Positions 3,568 through 60,265 of a DNA stretch of 64,000 nucleotides are shown here, in pieces (position 1 is the stretch's first letter; the number at the start of each line of letters is the position of its first letter). This stretch comes from Burkholderiales bacterium (GTDB taxonomy: Bacteria > Pseudomonadota > Gammaproteobacteria > Burkholderiales > JAHFRG01), in the NCBI GenBank assembly GCA_035624535.1, contig DASPRI010000030.1, positions 3,067 to 67,066 of the forward strand, written 5' to 3'. A model generated the notes under the pieces. It searched no databases, had not been told where the DNA came from, and was given only the letters and a program-made list of their open reading frames with translations. The position numbers were made by a program, and so were the translations under genes.

Positions 3568-3918
3568 CTATTCTTCAAACGCGCTTTTTATCCACTCAAT
3601 ATCCCGCCGGCGCATTCCGCTTAGCAATACCGCGTCGAAACGGCAAGGTGCAGTTCCCCGTCTGGAAGCGAGGTAGTGACGTGCTGCCTTAAGCAGCTTT
3701 TCACGCTTTTTGGCGGTTATGCTTGCCGCCGCGCCGCCGAAATTGGCGTCAGTACGCAACCGCACTTCTGCAAACACCAAAGTGTCGCCGTCGCGAAGTA
3801 CCAGATCGATCTCGCCGAAGCGGCAGCGATAGTTGGTTTCCAATAATTTTAAACCTTGGTTTTGCAGAAAGGTCGCCGCTACGCGTTCCGCCGCAAGACC
3901 TTCAGCGTTTCGGTTCAT
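3568..3918 (-). CDS. yraN: YraN-family (UPF0102) predicted endonuclease
   Basis: 116 aa with a GEIDLV core, positioned between lpoA and the SIS gene as in the enterobacterial yraM-yraN-diaA-yraP block. Confidence 0.85.
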   Translation of the reverse strand: MNRNAEGLAAERVAATFLQNQGLKLLETNYRCRFGEIDLVLRDGDTLVFAEVRLRTDANFGGAAASITAKKREKLLKAARHYLASRRGTAPCRFDAVLLSGMRRRDIEWIKSAFEE

Positions 3919-17183: not shown

Positions 17184-18338
17184 ATGGCATACGCATTGCA
17201 AAAAAGGCGCGCGCCGCTCCTAGAATTTGATGTATCGCTCGTTTGGGTAACTCTTACCTTGCTGAGTCTGGGGCTGGTGATGGTGTACTCGGCCTCGATA
17301 GCCATTGCCGAGGCAGGCAAATGGCATCAGCCGACCTTCTTTCTAATGCGGCATGCGGTTTTTATTGGCATCGGCATTGCGCTGGGAGCAACCGCATTTC
17401 AATTGCCGATGCAGCTTTGGCAGCGCATGTCTCCCTATCTGTTCTTGTTTGGCGCGGGCCTACTGGTATTGGTGCTGATTCCCGGAATAGGCCGCGAAGT
17501 CAATGGCGGCCAACGCTGGCTGCCGCTGGTTTTCGTTAACTTGCAGCCTTCGGAATTCATGAAACTCTTGGTGGTTATTTACGCCGCCGACTATACGGTG
17601 CGCAAGGCTGCGTGGATGCACAGCTTCCGCAAAGGTTTCCTGCCGATGTTGCTAGTGATGCTGCTGATCGGGGGACTGTTACTGCAAGAGCCCGATTTCG
17701 GCGCATTCGCAGTGATCACCGCGATCGCCATGGCGATCCTGTTTCTCGGAGGAATGAACTGGAAGCTTTTCGCTGGATTGATCTGCATGCTGATTATCGG
17801 TTTCCTGCTGTTGATATGGAGTTCACCCTATCGCATGCAACGCGTTATCGGTTTTATGGATCCTTGGGCGGATTCCTTTGGCAGTGGGTATCAATTGAGC
17901 CACGCGCTGATTGCATTCGGACGTGGCGCATGGTTGGGCGTGGGACTCGGTGGCAGCGTTGAAAAACTGCTTTACCTGCCTGAAGCGTACACCGATTTTC
18001 TGCTCGCTGTAATCGCGGAAGAGCTTGGGTTCGCCGGGGTCGTTGTGGTTATCGCGTTGTTCGCGTGGTTGGTGATGCGGGCGTTTGCCATTGGCCGTCA
18101 AGCGACTTATTTAGAGCGTTATTTTTCCGCGCTGGTAGCGCAAGGCATCGGCGTGTGGCTGGCAGTGCAGGCAATCATCAATATCGGGGTCAACATGGGT
18201 GTGCTGCCCACTAAGGGTTTGACTCTGCCGTTGATGAGCTTTGGCGGCAGCGGTATGGCTGCAAACTGCATTGCGATTGCATTGCTGTTACGAGTGGACT
18301 GGGAAAACCGCCAGCTCATGCGGGGGAAGCCCGTATGA
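17184..18338 (+). CDS. ftsW: Peptidoglycan glycosyltransferase FtsW (SEDS family)
   Basis: 384 aa, polytopic SEDS protein (PSEFMK, LQPDFG-like [16 protein letters not shown]). It starts immediately after the murD stop. Confidence 0.95.
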
Positions 18339-18425
18339 GCTGGCAGGTTTCGGTGGAGGCTAACGTGGCGACAACCAACGTTATGCCGGAACCAAAACCA
18401 GGGCTCATGCGGGGGAAGCCCGTAT
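18314..18425 (+). repeat. 23-nt perfect direct repeat of the ftsW 3' end flanking a 66-nt insert
   Basis: GCTCATGCGGGGGAAGCCCGTAT occurs at 18314-18336 and again at 18403-18425. The insert at 18337-18402 contains the conserved core 18348-18397, which is shared with the sucD 3' region. Confidence 0.9.
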
Positions 18426-18427
18426 AG

Positions 18428-19510
18428 ATGAGCCGCGCGATATTGATAATGGCGGGAGGCACCGGCGGCCATGTGTTTCCCGGCTTGGCCGTGGCGGAAT
18501 TTTTCAGGCAGCAAGGGTGGCGCGTGGTGTGGTTGGGCACGCACGCAGGCATGGAGGCGAAGTTGGTCGTGCAACAAGGATATGAAATGGCATGGGTGAG
18601 CTTTTCAGGTGTGAGAGGAAAAAGCGCGCTGCGCTTTTTGTTGCTTCCGATGAAATTACTAGTGGCATTCTGGCAGTCGGCGCGGGCGATATTCAAGTAT
18701 CGGCCGGATGTGGTGCTCGGCATGGGCGGTTATGTGGCTTTTCCGGGGGGAATGATGGCCTCCTTATTAAATAGGCCGCTGGTGATACACGAGCAGAATT
18801 CAATAGCTGGCTTGGCCAACAAAATACTGGCAAAACTCGCAGACCGCGTTTTAGTGGCTTTCCCTGAGGCGTTTGGCGCGGCAACGACTGGAATCCAAAT
18901 AGTTACCGGAAATCCGGTGCGCAGCGAAATCCTGACCATCGAGCCGCCCGAGACGCGCTATAGCAAGCGTACGGGACCGTTACATGTACTGGTGGTGGGC
19001 GGAAGCTTGGGAGCGCAGGTGCTCAACGAGACGGTGCCGCAAGCTTTGGCGCTATTGCCGCGCGAGGCCCGGCCACTGGTCACTCACCAATCAGGTGCAC
19101 AACACTTTGCTGCTCTCAAGGAAGGATATGCGCGCGCCGGCGTCGAAGCGCGCGTTGAAGCATTTATCGCCGACATGGCGCATTGCTACGCGGAGTCCGA
19201 TTTGCTGATTTGCCGTGCCGGTGCGCTCACCGTTGCTGAAATCGCCGTTGCGGGTATCGCCAGCATCCTGGTGCCTTATCCGCTGGCAGCAGACGATCAC
19301 CAGACCCACAATGCGCGCCACCTATCGGACCAGGGGGCAGCCTGGATTCTTCAGCAAAGTGATTTGAGTGCGCGTTCGCTCGCCGATCTGTTGCGGGGAA
19401 TTAATCGTGAGAATTTGCTGCAAGTCGCGCGCCGCGCGCGGCAGCTCGGAAAGCCCGACGCTACCCAGTTAGTGGCACGCTCATGCATGGAGTTGGCTTA
19501 TGCAGGATAA
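18428..19510 (+). CDS. murG: UDP-N-acetylglucosamine--N-acetylmuramyl-(pentapeptide) pyrophosphoryl-undecaprenol GlcNAc transferase
   Basis: 360 aa beginning ILIMAGGTGGHVFPGLAVA, with a GT28 fold, in the expected dcw position. Confidence 0.95.
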   Translation: MSRAILIMAGGTGGHVFPGLAVAEFFRQQGWRVVWLGTHAGMEAKLVVQQGYEMAWVSFSGVRGKSALRFLLLPMKLLVAFWQSARAIFKYRPDVVLGMGGYVAFPGGMMASLLNRPLVIHEQNSIAGLANKILAKLADRVLVAFPEAFGAATTGIQIVTGNPVRSEILTIEPPETRYSKRTGPLHVLVVGGSLGAQVLNETVPQALALLPREARPLVTHQSGAQHFAALKEGYARAGVEARVEAFIADMAHCYAESDLLICRAGALTVAEIAVAGIASILVPYPLAADDHQTHNARHLSDQGAAWILQQSDLSARSLADLLRGINRENLLQVARRARQLGKPDATQLVARSCMELAYAG

Positions 19511-19654
19511 GAAAGAATACACGTGTGTCCTTGGCGGAGGCAAGGTTGCCATGAGGGGGACGCAAGGCCCCATCGCAGTTGAAAGGGTGGGACACGAACG
19601 GCTTGGACGGGCACCGGCCGGCGACAGTTTGCCGTTGATTTGTTCGGAATGTCC

Positions 19655-21043
19655 ATGTTGAAGCAGAAAGTTAAACAGATACATTTCATCGGTGTGGGCG
19701 GCTCGGGAATGAGCGGAATCGCCGAAGTTTTGCTCAACTCGGGTTTCCGGGTCAGCGGTTCGGATCTCGTCGAAAACGCCGCAACCCGGCGCCTGAAAAT
19801 GCTGGGTGCCAAAATCCACCAAGGACATGCCGAGACCTATGTAGAAGGCGCCGATGTGGTGGTGGTGTCAACAGCGGTGAGTGAGGAAAATCCGGAAGTC
19901 CGGGCAGCTCGCGCGCGCGGTATACCGGTAGTGCCGCGCGCCAAAATGCTGGCGGAATTGATGCGCCTGCGCCAGGGTATTGCTGTTGCCGGGACCCATG
20001 GCAAGACCACCACCACCAGCTTAGTTGCCAGCGTTTTGGCTGAAGCGGGACTGGATCCGACTTTTGTCATTGGAGGGAGGCTCGAAGCGGCGGGTTCGCA
20101 CGCCAAACTGGGTACCGGCGAATTTATCGTGGTGGAAGCCGACGAATCGGATGCATCGTTCCTTTATCTGCAGCCGATTATGGCGGTGGTCACCAATATT
20201 GATGCCGACCATATGGATACCTACCACCACGATTTCGGAAAACTCAAGCAGGCGTTCGTGGACTTCCTCCAACATCTTCCATTTTATGGCAGCGCAGTGT
20301 TGTGCGTTGATGATGCCAGAATCCGAGAGATCATGCCGTTCATTACCAGACCTGTCGCCACTTACGGGCTTGCCGAGGCTGCGCAAGTGCGGGCGGTGGA
20401 TGTCGCGCATCGTGAAGGAAAAATGCAGTTCCGTGTTACTCGGCCCGGCGGCAAAGATCTGACTGTTACCTTGAATATGCCGGGTGTACATAACGTGCAA
20501 AACGCGCTGGCCGCCATAGTGGTGGGAATGCAACTGGGCGTAGCGGATGCCGCCATCCTCAAGGCGCTTGCCGGTTTCAAGGGAGTAGGCCGGCGCCTGC
20601 AGCGTTACGGTGAAATCCAGCTTGAAGGCGGAGGCAGCTTCACACTGCTGGACGATTATGGGCATCACCCGGTCGAAATCGCGGCGACGTTGGACGCGGT
20701 GCACGGTGCGTTTCCCAGTAGACGCGTAGTGCTGGCATTTCAGCCGCACCGTTACAGCCGGACTCGAGATCTGTTCGGGGATTTCGTAAAGGTGCTGTCC
20801 GCGGTGGAACTGCTGTTGCTATGCGAGGTGTATGCCGCGGGAGAGAAGCCGATTGCTGGCGCGGACGGTAAGGCGTTGACGCAAGCGATTCGTCTGCGCG
20901 GCAAGGAGCCGATATTCGTGGAGACAGTGGCCGAACTTCCACTGGCGATACGCAAGGCTGCTCAGTCGGGGGATGTGGTGGTGACAATGGGAGCTGGTTC
21001 GATCGGCAGCGTGCCGGCAATGCTCACACAAAGCGCAGCATAA
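19655..21043 (+). CDS. murC: UDP-N-acetylmuramate--L-alanine ligase
   Basis: [25 protein letters not shown] is a typical MurC N-terminus. The P-loop is GTHGKTTTT. Alternative upstream starts exist at 19640 (TTG, used by the track) and 19649 (ATG). Confidence 0.95.
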
Positions 21044-35694: not shown

Positions 35695-36633
35695 ATGGCC
35701 GCAGCCAAGGGAATAAAAAATCCGCAACGCGAACGCTTGCGCCCAATGTCGGCAGCAGATGCAAGAGAATTGAGCGCACTCCTGGAGCGCGTTGACGCAT
35801 TTCTTGACAAGCTTGAGCGCTGGCTGCCACTGCCGCCCGGCGAGCCGGACTGGGACTCGTCAATCGCTTTTCGCTGGCGCAAACGCAATGCCAGCGGATA
35901 CATTCAGCCGGTTTCCCACCCGCACCGCATCCGCCTTAAGGACTTGCTCGGCATCGAGCAGCAAAAACATTTAATCGATCAAAATACCCGGCAATTTGTA
36001 CACGGATATCCGGCCAACAACGTATTGCTAACGGGCGCACGGGGTACCGGAAAATCATCGCTCGCGAAAGCGGTGCTGAACAAATACGCGGCAAAAGGAC
36101 TGCGCCTCATCGAGGTCGACAAACATGATCTCATTGATATGCCTGACATCGTTGAGCAGATTTACCGGCGCCCAGAGCGTTTCCTGCTGTTTTGCGATGA
36201 TCTGTCGTTCGAATCGGACGAACCGGGCTACAAGGCACTCAAGGCGGTGCTGGACGGTTCGATCGCAACGACTTCAGAGAATGTGCTAATTTACGCGACT
36301 TCCAACCGGCGTCATCTGATGCCCGAATATATGCAGGAAAATCTCATGACCCGCGTGGTGGGCGAAGAAGTGCATCCCAGCGAAGGAGTGGAAGAAAAAA
36401 TTTCTTTTTCTGAGCGCTTTGGACTCTGGCTCTCGTTCTACCCGTTCAACCAGGACGATTATTTGCGCATTGTTGAACACTGGCTGGGTTACCTCAATGT
36501 GCGCAACCCGAGTTCTAGCGAAATACGCGAAAGTGCTCTGCAATGGGCCCTTTTGCGCGGCTCGCGCTCCGGACGAGTGGCATGGCAATTCGCTTGCGAC
36601 TGGGCGGGCAGGCACGGCATTAAATCAGAATGA
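35695..36633 (+). CDS. P-loop ATPase, DUF815 family
   Basis: 312 aa with the Walker A motif LLTGARGTGKSS and Walker B-like FLLFCDDLSF. Confidence 0.7.
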   Translation: MAAAKGIKNPQRERLRPMSAADARELSALLERVDAFLDKLERWLPLPPGEPDWDSSIAFRWRKRNASGYIQPVSHPHRIRLKDLLGIEQQKHLIDQNTRQFVHGYPANNVLLTGARGTGKSSLAKAVLNKYAAKGLRLIEVDKHDLIDMPDIVEQIYRRPERFLLFCDDLSFESDEPGYKALKAVLDGSIATTSENVLIYATSNRRHLMPEYMQENLMTRVVGEEVHPSEGVEEKISFSERFGLWLSFYPFNQDDYLRIVEHWLGYLNVRNPSSSEIRESALQWALLRGSRSGRVAWQFACDWAGRHGIKSE

Positions 36634-37634
36634 GGTGTATTTCCGCGGAGCGCAATCAACCGCTGTTGAAAGAGGATGATTCATGCGGCGGCAACACGCT
36701 CAATGTTGCCGCGGCGGTAATCCTTAAACCTGACGGGCAGTTTCTGCTGGCGCAACGACCGGCCGGCAAACCCTACGCCGGTTATTGGGAGTTTCCCGGC
36801 GGCAAGATCAAAGCGCATGAATCGAGCGAACAAGCGTTGCGTCGCGAATTGCAGGAAGAACTGGGCATTCACGCCGAGCAGGTCTACCCCTGGCTGACTC
36901 AGGATTACCGTTATCCGCATGCCACCGTCAGGCTAATCTTCCACCGCGTATTGCGCTGGAGCGGCGAGCCGCATGGCAGAGAAAACCAGCAATTATCGTG
37001 GCAAAGCGCAGAACGAGTTTATGTTGCACCGCTGCTGCCTGCCAACGGCCCAGTGTTGCGCGCGCTTAGCCTGCCCCCCGTCTATGCCATCAGCAACGCT
37101 GCGGAATTGGGCAAAGACAATTTTATGCAACGCCTGGAGCAGGGCTTGCAGAACGGTCTGCGCTTGATCCAGGTCAGGGAAAAGTGCATGGCGGAGGGCG
37201 AGTTTGAGCAATTTGCCGCTGCGGTTATCAGCGCCGCACGCCGCTATCGGGCGAAGGTATTGGTAAACGGGGACATCCGGCTGGCGCAGGAACTTGGCGC
37301 AGATGGAGTGCATTTGACGTCGAAGCAAATCATGTCGCTCAAGCATCGCCCGCAAGTCGAATGGTGCGGGGCATCCTGTCATGACCGTGAACAGTTGCAT
37401 CGCGCTGCAGCTTTGGGAGCGGATTTCGCAGCGCTCGCTCCGGTTTTACCGACCTTAAGCCACCCCGGAGCTCCAGGGATGGGATGGCAGTCATTTGCAA
37501 AATTGGTCGATGGATACAGTCTTCCCGTCTATGCCCTGGGAGGGATGCGACAACAGCATCTAAGCATAGCCTGGTCGCACGGCGCGCATGGCATAGCGAT
37601 GATGCGCGGCGCGTGGCTGGTAAGGAACCTCTGA
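36630..37634 (+). CDS. mutT: Nudix hydrolase (MutT-like) fused to a thiamine-phosphate-synthase-like domain
   Basis: 334 aa. The N-terminal Nudix box is GGKIKAHESSEQALRRELQEELG. The C-terminal roughly 180 aa is TIM-barrel ThiE-like (LIQVREK ... VHLTS ... GASCH ... YALGG). Its start overlaps the preceding stop in an ATGA arrangement. Confidence 0.85.
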   Translation: MRCISAERNQPLLKEDDSCGGNTLNVAAAVILKPDGQFLLAQRPAGKPYAGYWEFPGGKIKAHESSEQALRRELQEELGIHAEQVYPWLTQDYRYPHATVRLIFHRVLRWSGEPHGRENQQLSWQSAERVYVAPLLPANGPVLRALSLPPVYAISNAAELGKDNFMQRLEQGLQNGLRLIQVREKCMAEGEFEQFAAAVISAARRYRAKVLVNGDIRLAQELGADGVHLTSKQIMSLKHRPQVEWCGASCHDREQLHRAAALGADFAALAPVLPTLSHPGAPGMGWQSFAKLVDGYSLPVYALGGMRQQHLSIAWSHGAHGIAMMRGAWLVRNL

Positions 37635-37898
37635 TTTAGTCCTTCGCGAATTGCGTTGCTGGAAAAATGCGGATGGCTGCGAGGCGCGCGACGAAGGTCG
37701 TAGTTAAGCCTACGAAGCCGAGGAGCGCAACGACGCAGACGCCGCATTTTGCCGCAACCCTAAGGGACGGGGCAATCCGTGCGCATGGCTTCGCTGTTCG
37801 TCGCTTATTTGGCCTCCACCAAACGGCGCTCCTCACGCCTCGCCCTACATCCGGATTGCACACCGTCGCAACCGCGAAGGGCTAAATCAGAGGTTCCC
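37623..37898. mobile_element. MITE-like palindromic element with ~32-nt terminal inverted repeats, flanked by TA
   Basis: The left arm, 37624-37655 (GGAACCTCTGATTTAGTCCTTCGCGAATTGCG), matches the reverse complement of 37867-37897 (GGAACCTCTGATTTAGCCCTTCGCGGTTGCG) at 29 of about 32 positions. Further imperfect complementarity runs inward. TA dinucleotides lie at 37621-37622 and 37899-37900. No transposase is present. Confidence 0.5.
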
Positions 37899-38077
37899 TA
37901 CGGCTGTTGGTTTCTTTTCTGGTGCTCAGGAATACGGTAACTTTCCGCCGCCCATTGCCCGAGATCGATCAACTTGCAGCGTTTGGAGCAAAACGGGCGG
38001 TAGCGATTGCCTTCATCCCAAGGTACGCTTTTCCCGCATTGCGGGCATTGCACCTTGGTCCGTTGCGATCGTTTCAT
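37898..38077 (-). CDS. yacG: DNA gyrase inhibitor YacG (zinc finger)
   Basis: The [20 protein letters not shown]...[16 protein letters not shown] pattern is the YacG zinc ribbon. Its ATG overlaps the zapD stop (ATGA). The track start at 38122 is an extension. Confidence 0.85.
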
Positions 38078-59223: not shown

Positions 59224-59459
59224 TTAGCCTGCACCGAAAATTGGCCTCATAACATGGACTTCACCAGCTTGCCCATCTCGGCAGGATTGCGGGTGACTTT
59301 GATCCCACACTCTTCCCTTATTTTGCGTCTTTTTGGTTCCGGCATAACATTGCGCTTGCCGCAATGTTAGCCTGCACCGAAAATTGGCCTCACAGCACGG
59401 ATTTCACCAGCTTGCCCATCTCGGCAGGATTGCGGGTGACTTTGATCCCACACTCTTCC
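59224..59459 (-). repeat. 93-nt direct repeat (89/93 identical) duplicating the sucD 3' end, stop codon and 23 nt downstream
   Basis: Copy B (59367-59459) comprises the last 22 codons (plus one base of the preceding codon) of sucD, its TGA, and 23 nt downstream. Copy A (59224-59316) lies 50 nt further downstream in the sucD sense. The four mismatches all fall in the last four sucD codons. Confidence 0.9.
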
Positions 59460-60265
59460 ATCACGGCCAATTTTTCTTGGGCGGTTCCTTTACCTCCAGA
59501 AATAATCGCGCCCGCGTGGCCCATTCTTTTCCCAGGCGGTGCAGTCACTCCTGCAATAAAACCAACCACCGGCTTTTGCATGTTGTCCCTAATCCAGCGA
59601 GCACAATCTTCTTCGTCGGTGCCGCCGATTTCTCCGACCATAATCACTGCGTCAGTATTCGGATCTTCATGAAACATTTTCATGACATCGATATGTTTGA
59701 ACCCCCCAACCGGATCGCCGCCGATGCCGACGCAGGTAGATTGCCCCAGCCCTTGCTCCATCAATTGTCCTACCGCTTCGTAAGTCAGCGTACCTGAGCG
59801 TGAGACCACACCGACACGCCCTTTCTTGTGTATGTGTCCCGGCATGATGCCAATCTTAATTTCATCCGGCGTAATAACCCCGGGGCAATTCGGACCAATG
59901 AGAACCGTTTTCTTGTCCCGCATCTTGTAGCGGGTGCGGATCATGTCGCGCGCTGGTATGCCCTCGGTGATGCAGATCACCAAATCGAGCTCGGCTTCTA
60001 CCGCTTCATCAATCGCCGCCGCTGCGAATGGCGCAGGAACATAAATCACCGAAACGGTGGCGCCAGTTTTCTCCCGGGCTTCGCGTACCGTGTCGAAAAC
60101 CGGGATACCCTCGAAATCCTGTCCGCCTTTGCCCGGAGTGACCCCTGCGACGAAGCAGTTTCCGCCATTCGCGTAATCGCGGCACATGCGCGTATGGAAT
60201 TGGCCAGTTTTACCGGTTATCCCCTGAGTCATGACCCGGGTATTTTTGTTGATTAGAATCGCCAT
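59390..60265 (-). CDS. sucD: Succinate--CoA ligase [ADP-forming] alpha subunit
   Basis: 291 aa beginning [21 protein letters not shown], with SRSGTLTYE and the active-site MGHAGAI. Confidence 0.95.

Follow-up and report, generated by a model that had tools for sequence, protein, structure and literature searches.

An apparently undescribed family of small palindromic repeats in betaproteobacteria, with long target-site duplications anchored at an A-run

The hairpin sequences which follow ftsW and sucD in the 64-kb stretch of DNA analysed here (the window) are copies of an apparently undescribed repeat family in betaproteobacteria. Sequence comparison of copies, flanks and sites demonstrates mobility, a long duplication anchored at one end, an exact 3' end and, on the 5' side, an untidy junction carrying an inverted target copy; the duplicated target amounts to about 30–130 nt per insertion and starts nearly always at a run of AAAA. 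The hairpin is probably a small non-autonomous mobile element, inserted by copying which is primed at a nick beside the A-run.

The features of both window copies are listed below (numbers beginning with L designate loci; scores are those of covariance model R1, which was built from 64 copies).

17184-18338, + strand: ftsW open reading frame, FtsW; PF01098 in orthologous loci
18304..18336, + strand: left copy of the ftsW target-site duplication, AAAACCGCCAGCTCATGCGGGGGAAGCCCGTAT; functional last codons of ftsW, single copy in empty sites L078-L081
18335..18427, + strand: relay open reading frame, 30 codons; its start overlaps the ftsW stop (ATGA), its TAG abuts the murG ATG
18337..18347, + strand: 5' extension of the ftsW copy, GAGCTGGCAGG; inverted copy of the start of the duplicated segment, absent from empty sites
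18348..18393, + strand: core of the ftsW copy, a 46-nt imperfect palindrome; R1 66.9 bits, E 1e-17
18394..18425, + strand: right copy of the ftsW target-site duplication, AAAACCAGGGCTCATGCGGGGGAAGCCCGTAT; followed by the ancestral ftsW-murG junction TAG/ATG (18425-18430)
18428, + strand: start of murG
59224..59246, - strand: second 5' extension and first 16 nt of a core at sucD, within the 93-nt repeat
59247..59334, - strand: right copy of the sucD target-site duplication (orphan tail); initial ~19 nt diverged, remainder 96% identical to the left copy
59335..59382, - strand: core of the sucD copy, 48 nt, apical stem 2 nt longer; R1 64.2 bits, E 8e-17
59383..59389, - strand: 5' extension of the sucD copy, GGCCAAT; reverse complement of ATTGGCC, which opens the duplicated segment
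59390..59475, - strand: left copy of the sucD target-site duplication, AAAAATTGGCCGTGATGGAAGAG...GTGCTGTGA; the functional 3' end of sucD; L126 and L127 are empty sites with one tail
59390-60265, - strand: sucD open reading frame, SucD

Re-reading of the sequence confirmed exactly the letters which the first-pass annotation had quoted for 18348-18397 (+) and 59382-59331 (-), as well as the distances from stop codon to core of 9 nt (ftsW) and 7 nt (sucD); the four terminal A's, which had been counted as core, belong to the duplicated target instead. The shared 18-mer GTTATGCCGGAACCAAAA occurs twice in the window, compared to 0.13 expected occurrences, and none of 100 shuffled sequences reached two. 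The 5' box TTTCGGTGSAGGCTAA is present three times (0.07 expected), and its match at 59239-59224 bears out the truncated third start of the core that had been proposed. Duplicated gene tails were found at both loci as claimed: positions 18314-18336 equal 18403-18425 (23 nt, 100%), and 59224-59316 correspond to 59367-59459 (93 nt, 96%). The stretch at 59224..59246 (-), downstream of which lies a degenerate element-like stretch (GGTTCGCGAAACC...ATGCCG...), is read as a probable remnant of an earlier insertion at the same sucD site; locus L037 is analogous, with an intact copy upstream of a degenerate one. A scan with R1 detected only two full copies in the 64-kb window. A template/variable repeat pair of the DGR type was rejected as an explanation: where the repeats differ, the exchanges show no restriction to adenines, and the window ORFs tested were without a reverse transcriptase domain.

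The two copies proved to be members of a family and not a pair restricted to the window, as followed from an exact 18-mer search of genomes, one per species, and from the covariance model. The 18-mer matched 74 genome loci, 59 of which were true copies by the covariance model, stemming from ~52 betaproteobacterial metagenome-assembled genomes (MAGs); 13 of the 74 were located in unrelated phyla, where the remainder of the element is missing, and are read as probable chance matches. R1 yielded 79 matches in 59 of 61 betaproteobacterial loci, among which a series of 5'-truncated copies was not seen, and 35 further loci were obtained from metagenomes with a pattern lacking the AAAA tail. Carriers are iron-oxidising and related betaproteobacteria, namely Gallionella and other Gallionellaceae, Rhodocyclaceae, Sulfuritalea, Methyloversatilis, Thiobacillus, Nitrosomonadales, and MAGs designated Burkholderiales or "Betaproteobacteria"; the MurG of the window is identical to a protein from a Burkholderiales MAG. 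The basal sequence of the element is strongly conserved, although the MurG proteins of the hosts are only about 57–68% identical. The same architecture was present in MAGs and metagenomes of many independent studies, and an assembly artefact was rejected for this reason. The sequence GAAAACGAAG recurs as a 5' flank. A longer full-length element with a common 5' region was discarded, since the upstream similarity represents orthologous gene ends.

Searches of other collections gave no relatives of the element. Rfam contained no match at gathering thresholds and noise only at E values up to 10, and BLAST searches of plasmid and phage collections yielded nothing relevant. In IMG/VR viral contigs, two matches to the 18-mer and 41 to the 5' box were found, which are chance matches, none of them fitting the covariance model. 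Published descriptions of the element were not found in the literature, and the initial opinion that it is neither REP/BIME, ERIC nor Correia was upheld.

The consensus core comprises 46 nt (46–50 nt across copies) and reads TTTCGGYGNAGGCTAAC-[variable paired stem]-GTTATGCCGGAACC, an imperfect palindrome ending in ...GGAACC. Its outer stem consists of TTTCGGT/ACCAAAA with a constant C x A mismatch, followed by an internal loop, GNA x GGA, and an inner stem, GGCTAAC/GTTA-T-GCC, with the T bulged; the apical stem is free in sequence and conserved in pairing, and its closing loop is often C-GNA-G (GAA, GCA, GTA). In the ftsW copy the order is accordingly TTTCGGT, GGA loop, GGCTAAC, variable stem, GTTA-T-GCC, GGA loop and ACC. 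The whole element being an imperfect palindrome, inverted-repeat arms are present (TTTCGGT pairs with ACCAAAA, GGCTAAC with GTTA-T-GCC), and the earlier statement that terminal inverted repeats are lacking was wrong. A start site of the type split Shine-Dalgarno (GGAGG)-hairpin-ATG was eliminated, because GGAGG is only GNAGG across the family.

Both window copies fold at the same position, as had been noted, with RNA folding energies of -23.7 and -24.5 kcal/mol (z values of -2.2 and -4.0). Over 64 family members, 91% of cells were paired, compared to 82% in shuffled alignments and 32–43% in slid registers; the covariation score was 0.279 versus 0.127 for shuffled data, and none of 500 shuffles came up to 0.279. 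Compensatory changes from GGC/GCC to GAC/GTC are present in the family, and the exchange of a G:C for an A:T pair between the window copies is real; it is no proof of selection on RNA structure, as had been suggested, since template-switch correction of quasi-palindromes yields the same pattern. Asymmetries of wobble pairs and mismatches in the 64 copies favour neither strand.

Comparison of the ftsW-murG and sucD loci revealed that empty sites exist in sister lineages. At ftsW-murG, the loci L078-L081, whose MurG is 80% identical, read ...CAGCTGATGCGGGGGAAACCGGTATAG/ATGAGC...: the tail is single there, the hairpin is missing, and the ftsW stop directly abuts the murG start, while relatives of 97% and 86% are filled as in the window. 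Filled and empty sites differ by 89 nt, which consist of the 33-nt duplication, 11 nt (GAGCTGGCAGG) and the 46-nt core. The available empty ftsW sites read GAGAAT and not GAAAAC; the AAAA preceding insertion is therefore deduced, not seen. At sucD, only one tail is present in the empty loci L126 and L127 (87% identical SucD), while insertions occupy L125, L015 and L033, the last of these with two tandem units. A remnant of an integrative island with a replacement gene tail was dismissed, since many genes without any relationship share this core, and since just these 89 nt distinguish an occupied from an empty site.

The duplication of a tail behind the element, described initially for two genes, turned out to be a general property of the family, namely a long target-site duplication. 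When both flanks of each copy were aligned, 45 of the 93 distinct copies showed direct repeats. In 31 of these 45, no base intervenes between GGAACC and the right repeat; the start of the left repeat, which could be placed in 38 of the 45, opens with AAAA inside the neighbouring gene in 32. The base preceding the A-run is G in 28 of 36 cases, giving a target consensus of G/AAAA. Lengths of the duplications as measured were 36–187 nt with a median of ~68 nt, a few being inflated by adjoining copies. Since the genome query had itself contained AAAA, the metagenomes were scanned with a pattern that stopped at GGAACC, in order to avoid ascertainment; the four bases following GGAACC were AAAA in 30 of 36 metagenome copies. 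Where the tail is ACAA (L160, L162), the left repeat opens likewise with ACAA, and the tetranucleotide is thus target-derived, with the mobile unit ending in ...GGAACC.

The two junctions are asymmetric, the 3' end being exact at the A-run and the 5' end carrying 0–45 nt of extra sequence; a matching T-run at the far end of the repeat was not found. The A-run never exceeds the target's own length and is therefore no independent sign of an A-tailed RNA. An older copy follows the right repeat at the sucD locus of the window and at L037, L007, L025, L039 and L041, so that local duplication also contributes, and in such cases the younger duplication has its far end at or within the older copy (sucD of the window, L037). 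As the primary event, pure slippage or tandem duplication was rejected, because simple sites contain one core between two repeats; for arrays of the kind found at L033 it is still likely.

Between left repeat and core, the reverse complement of the first 7–14 nt of the duplicated segment is present, sometimes with a few extra bases:

Window, ftsW: 5' extension GAGCTGGC(A)GG; start of the duplicated segment CCGCCAGCTC
Window, sucD: 5' extension GGCCAAT; start of the duplicated segment ATTGGCC
L015: 5' extension GGCCAAC; start of the duplicated segment GTTGGCC
L037: 5' extension CTCATTTCCG; start of the duplicated segment CGGAAATGAG
L053: 5' extension GGATCGCAGGG; start of the duplicated segment CCCTGCGATCC
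L141: 5' extension ACTTGGCAATCTGC; start of the duplicated segment GCAGATTGCCAAGT

In the ftsW copy, GAGCTGGCAGG is the reverse complement of CC-GCCAGCTC plus one extra base and makes the hairpin longer. In the orthologous sucD copies L015 and L033, GGCCAAC fits their own GTTGGCC. Extra pairing of at least 5 bp was observed in 13 of 64 copies, compared to a control mean of 0.74 and a control maximum of 4, and of 38 copies, 21 have an extension which fits the left repeat, compared to 10 for the right repeat. In older insertions, divergence is greatest in the initial ~15 nt of the right repeat; very long perfect hairpins would presumably be unstable. As the empty ftsW site lacks the inverted copy, the latter arises with or after insertion. 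It could alternatively be formed after insertion by template switching at quasi-palindromes, and template-switch correction may have a share in the inverted copy as well as in the apparent covariation.

A meaning of the element that depends on proximity to a stop codon on the sense strand, as first proposed, was not borne out. An upstream ORF is nearby in 62 copies; 36 of them come after a gene of the same direction, and the other 26 are situated beside the start of a gene on the opposite strand; examples of the latter kind of position are the 5' end of obg (L068) and, in antisense, the rplL-rpoB spacer (L062). The duplicated segment is the 5' head of a gene at obg (L068) and at murG (L023, L055). 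Neighbours are housekeeping genes, i.e., those for aspartate and histidinol-phosphate aminotransferases, acetyl-CoA synthetase, FolE2, DnaB, Dps, DksA and MurG. The same sites were struck repeatedly in different lineages, namely the ftsW codons TGG GAA AAC CG ("GAAAAC"), the end of dksA and the end of sucD, and one ftsW-murG junction of Gallionellaceae contains three nested insertions. Since a duplication can span a stop or a start, both neighbouring genes remain intact, and surviving copies therefore follow gene ends by a few bases and are themselves followed by an orphan tail or head. That the hairpin is not a plain terminator was corroborated by the sequences following it, CCAAAACC and CCAAAAAG, which contain no U-tract, and by the mixed orientation to genes.

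These data bear on the notion of a functional cis-acting RNA or DNA structure which is selected at gene ends, be it an mRNA 3' stabiliser, a protein-binding site or a translational-coupling device, and which would have spread by virtue of its usefulness, with the duplications resulting from slippage at the hairpin. Conservation of the basal sequence across the hosts mentioned, covarying pairing, a ftsW-murG position conserved across Gallionellaceae, relay ORFs which remain open, and conservation, in the sense strand, of the GNA x GGA internal loop would all suit such a structure. It appears nonetheless quite improbable, considering the mixed orientation (36 versus 26, including the antisense copy between rplL and rpoB), the lack of a U-tract and of any Rfam family, relaxed thresholds included, and the close relatives without the element at both window loci. 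Furthermore, slippage alone cannot reach new loci, and it always leaves two full copies, whereas ftsW, L053 and L004 are without a second one.

At ftsW-murG, the junction between GTAT and GAGCTGGCAGG created a new ftsW stop TGA (18336-18338) and an ATG at position 18335. The relay ORF which starts at this ATG (GT ATG AGC) crosses first the hairpin and then the orphan tail before it ends at the TAG, and it is open also in the 97% and 86% relatives despite sequence change. In Gallionellaceae, two to three chained ORFs with ATGA overlaps bridge ftsW to murG over up to three insertions; these chains traverse the core in a different frame (...RMLCRNQN...). Stop/start coupling was kept in four independent ftsW-murG insertions, which suggests that only coupling-preserving insertions survive in this operon. 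The first-pass annotation had also pointed to the peptide MPEPK: at both window loci, ATGCCGGAACCAAAA does continue in frame into the copied tail, and this part of the claim stands. A meaningful peptide is not supported, since the Gallionellaceae ftsW-murG copies use another frame, so that the in-frame reading is a by-product, and since the orientation of copies to genes is mixed; at sucD the frame has no relay role, the next co-directional gene being ~480 nt away.

An insertion pathway which would be compatible with these junctions can be outlined as follows. A nick in the bottom strand would produce a ...TTTT-3' end, which could pair with the A-tail of a single-stranded hairpin template, either RNA or DNA, and prime copying from the 3' end of the template. 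The new strand, ending in ...CCGAAA-3', would snap back onto the primer TTTT, the G.T pair thus formed corresponding to the constant C x A mismatch, and extension of the snapped-back strand by 7–14 nt would generate the inverted target copy. The 5' junction would be made at a variable distance by way of microhomology (CCTGA in L004 and L046) or of homology to an older copy, and its position would set the length of the duplication. In operons, only insertions which keep translational coupling would survive, leaving the relay ORFs at ftsW-murG. By analogy, the logic would be that of target-primed reverse transcription, with a template of RNA or DNA. Genes for reverse transcriptase, transposase, integrase or HUH proteins were found neither beside the copies examined nor among 30 non-dcw ORFs of the window.

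A more specific version would regard the family as a bacterial counterpart of SINEs, in which a copy of a structured RNA or single-stranded DNA is inserted at G/AAAA by target-primed synthesis and snap-back, using a polymerase/nuclease encoded by the host or by the element. This is a tentative proposal and rather doubtful; if true, no retroposon-like insertion signature with long target duplications would have been known from bacteria before.

Priming could also be imagined at the replication fork, where hairpin single-stranded DNA would anneal with its ...ACC(AAAA) 3' end to a T-run of the lagging-strand template and serve as an Okazaki primer, displacement by the upstream fragment and ligation then leading to a variable duplication. 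The duplication is indeed anchored at the A-run by the 3' end of the element and variable in length, a reverse transcriptase is missing among the 30 non-dcw window ORFs, and apical loops are often C-GNA-G, a motif which forms very stable DNA mini-hairpins. This route leaves the 5' inverted target copy unexplained in its observed orientation, as copying of a flap would give the reverse complement of the core, and free hairpin DNA has no known source; it is to be considered very improbable.

A transposase-driven MITE would be a more conventional interpretation, the arms being terminal inverted repeats of a parent insertion sequence (IS) whose DDE transposase makes long, variable staggered cuts as in IS1634/IS1549. 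The imperfect palindrome with its arm-like ends and the flanking direct repeats agree with this, IS1549 and IS1634 give repeats of 8–514 bp (PMC2266710), and the window itself contains a classical MITE at 37620-37901 (29-nt inverted repeats, 5-bp duplication), so that such elements are present in this genome. The asymmetric junctions, exact at the A-run on the 3' side and with 0–45 nt extra, including the inverted target copy, on the 5' side, make it unlikely: a symmetric transposase predicts a T-run at the far end, which is not there. Moreover, about 100 loci (up to 8–14 kb) contained no parent element, and the apical stem stays paired, whereas filler between inverted repeats need not. Insertion of a small non-autonomous element by copying primed beside the A-run is the reading we prefer, with a minority chance that the family is a true retroposon-like system.

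The family comprises small mobile palindromic elements with an unusual insertion signature, apparently undescribed. Duplication of a gene's own end lets a mobile element settle in the tightest junctions of essential operons, e.g., ftsW-murG of the cell-division cluster. As regards annotation of Gallionellaceae, Rhodocyclaceae and related environmental genomes, the orphan gene tails, small relay ORFs and pseudo-starts left by the element will be misread by gene-calling programs and in comparative studies. The conserved 46-nt core, together with presence/absence polymorphism, could serve as a marker for strain typing of largely uncultured iron- and sulfur-cycling bacteria.

Among known systems, MITEs and REP-like repeats (Correia/NEMIS, ERIC, RUP, REP/REPIN, RPE) resemble the present element in being small, non-coding, long stem-loops at gene boundaries without an enzyme of their own, and are sometimes co-transcribed or translated with their neighbours. 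They give short fixed duplications (TA for Correia) or none (REP), in contrast to the long, variable, AAAA-anchored duplications and the inverted target copy described here. A classical MITE shares the terminal inverted repeats; its short duplication of fixed length abuts both ends, while here 36–187 nt and a 5' gap of 0–45 nt were found. The GT[AG]G head of REP/REPIN is absent, the present consensus opening with TTTCGG; REP sequences have no target-site duplication and occur in hundreds of extragenic copies, often as inverted pairs, compared to long duplications and two full copies in 64 kb here. A RAYT (Y1 HUH) gene was found neither among the 30 non-dcw ORFs of the window nor beside the copies examined.

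The direct repeats generated by IS1634 and IS1549 measure tens to hundreds of bp and vary per copy, without an accepted mechanism (PMC2266710). Long direct repeats differing in length between copies are a common trait; those elements are autonomous IS of 1.5–2 kb with a DDE transposase from mycoplasmas, mycobacteria and archaea, a parent of that kind was not found here, and the junction asymmetry of the present element is not reported for them. MIRU are located at gene junctions of operons, where a short ORF through the repeat is coupled downstream with a -4 overlap (PMC12548453). Similar behaviour is seen in the ORF chains of Gallionellaceae and in ORF 18335-18427 of the window, which is a likeness in behaviour and not membership: MIRU differ in sequence, are tandem mycobacterial units of 40–100 bp and not hairpins, duplication of gene tails is not reported for them, and the reading frame through the present element is not conserved. 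BRE (~90 bp, 69% G+C, in Bordetella and Comamonadaceae) are likewise small betaproteobacterial repeats at gene boundaries, at times in tandem or overlapping ORF ends; the published BRE sequence list is without GGAACC or CCAAAA, and the host range differs (PMC3110155).

With integron attC sites, GGCTAAC and GTTATGC match the R'' (RYYYAAC) and R' (GTTRRRY) boxes at 6 of 7 positions each. These R-like boxes are enclosed by an outer stem and continue directly into the variable stem, whereas R''/R' of attC are outermost, followed by a spacer and L boxes. Furthermore, attC sites follow cassette ORFs in arrays beside intI without duplication, while here core genes are the neighbours and duplications are long; the test for attC detected no integrase among the 30 non-dcw window ORFs. 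An intrinsic terminator needs a G+C-rich hairpin with a U-tract in sense orientation to the upstream gene; the element has no U-tract, and its orientation to genes is mixed.

SINE/LINE insertion by target-primed reverse transcription differs in that the present element is bacterial, with no partner reverse transcriptase or endonuclease found near copies, that it has no A-tail beyond the A-run of the target, that duplications are about 36–130 nt compared to 7–20 nt, and that a clear 5'-truncation series was not seen, an RNA intermediate being putative. Likenesses are an exact 3' junction abutting the A-run, a target-site duplication which is variable in length and opens with A's, a purine-flanked A-run as target (G/AAAA here; the target of L1 is TT/AAAA), and a short, non-coding unit with a conserved 3' stem-loop as in stringent-type SINEs; the untidy 5' junction, with its extra or templated bases and microhomology, may be another. 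Small repeats are common in bacteria, but the present element unites a 3' end that is exact at an A-run with target duplications of very great and variable length and with an inverted target copy that is templated; this combination fits none of the families compared and points to an insertion chemistry that is so far uncharacterised in bacteria.

In the dcw cluster, duplication has enlarged a second junction, that between murG and murC. An insertion of approximately 158 nt is located there, at about 19500-19661 of the window and at 2573-2892 of L080, one of the ftsW-murG region loci of relatives (L075-L081) which were compared with the window. Since the insertion is a copy of the 5' head of murC, this junction was expanded by duplication; a 53-codon ORF between murG and murC is the result. 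The number of copies per locus was zero in L077, one each in the window, L075, L076, L078 and L081, and two in L080. A hairpin core was looked for in the insertion and was not found, and the fold of the insertion was not unusual.

At the ftsW-murG junction of a Gallionellaceae MAG (L023, 3480-4140), three nested insertions were present, two in sense and one in antisense orientation, the latter within the 5' end of murG. The ftsW tail was present in three copies at this junction, together with a murG pseudo-start; a new murG start, with GGAGG upstream of it, was located between repeat and core. In the rplL-rpoB spacer of a Gallionella MAG (L062, 3873-4110), the 3' half of the element was fused to about 180 nt of a different, partly palindromic sequence. 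This may be a variant of the element that is composite or has undergone rearrangement; the rplL-rpoB locus of L019, L030 and L031 contained a normal copy.

Immediately upstream of the core, the 5' flank (C)GAAAACGAAG recurred at many loci, e.g., L005, L009, L014, L017, L030, L042, L045 and L065, and it was found in copies of the element without detectable flanking repeats. Pairing of this flank with the GTTTC of the core itself is possible, with a GAA loop in between.

The covariance model yielded two weak matches in the window (E about 0.2), which retained the outer stem alone (GTTTC...AAAAC) and are either due to chance or else badly decayed copies of the element. They are given here together with two ordinary RNA genes:

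3704-3752, minus strand, weak match, 13.3 bits
7773-8098, plus strand, RNase P RNA class A, 261 bits
15733-15772, minus strand, weak match, 13.6 bits
63848-63920, minus strand, tRNA gene

The window also contained a 282-bp element at 37620-37901, into which the stop codon of the ORF 36630-37634 falls. It resembles a classical MITE, with terminal inverted repeats of 29 nt (GTAAGGAACCTCTGATTTAGTCCTTCGCG / CGCGAAGGGCTAAATCAGAGGTTCCCTAC) and the 5-bp direct repeat GGCTG on both sides.
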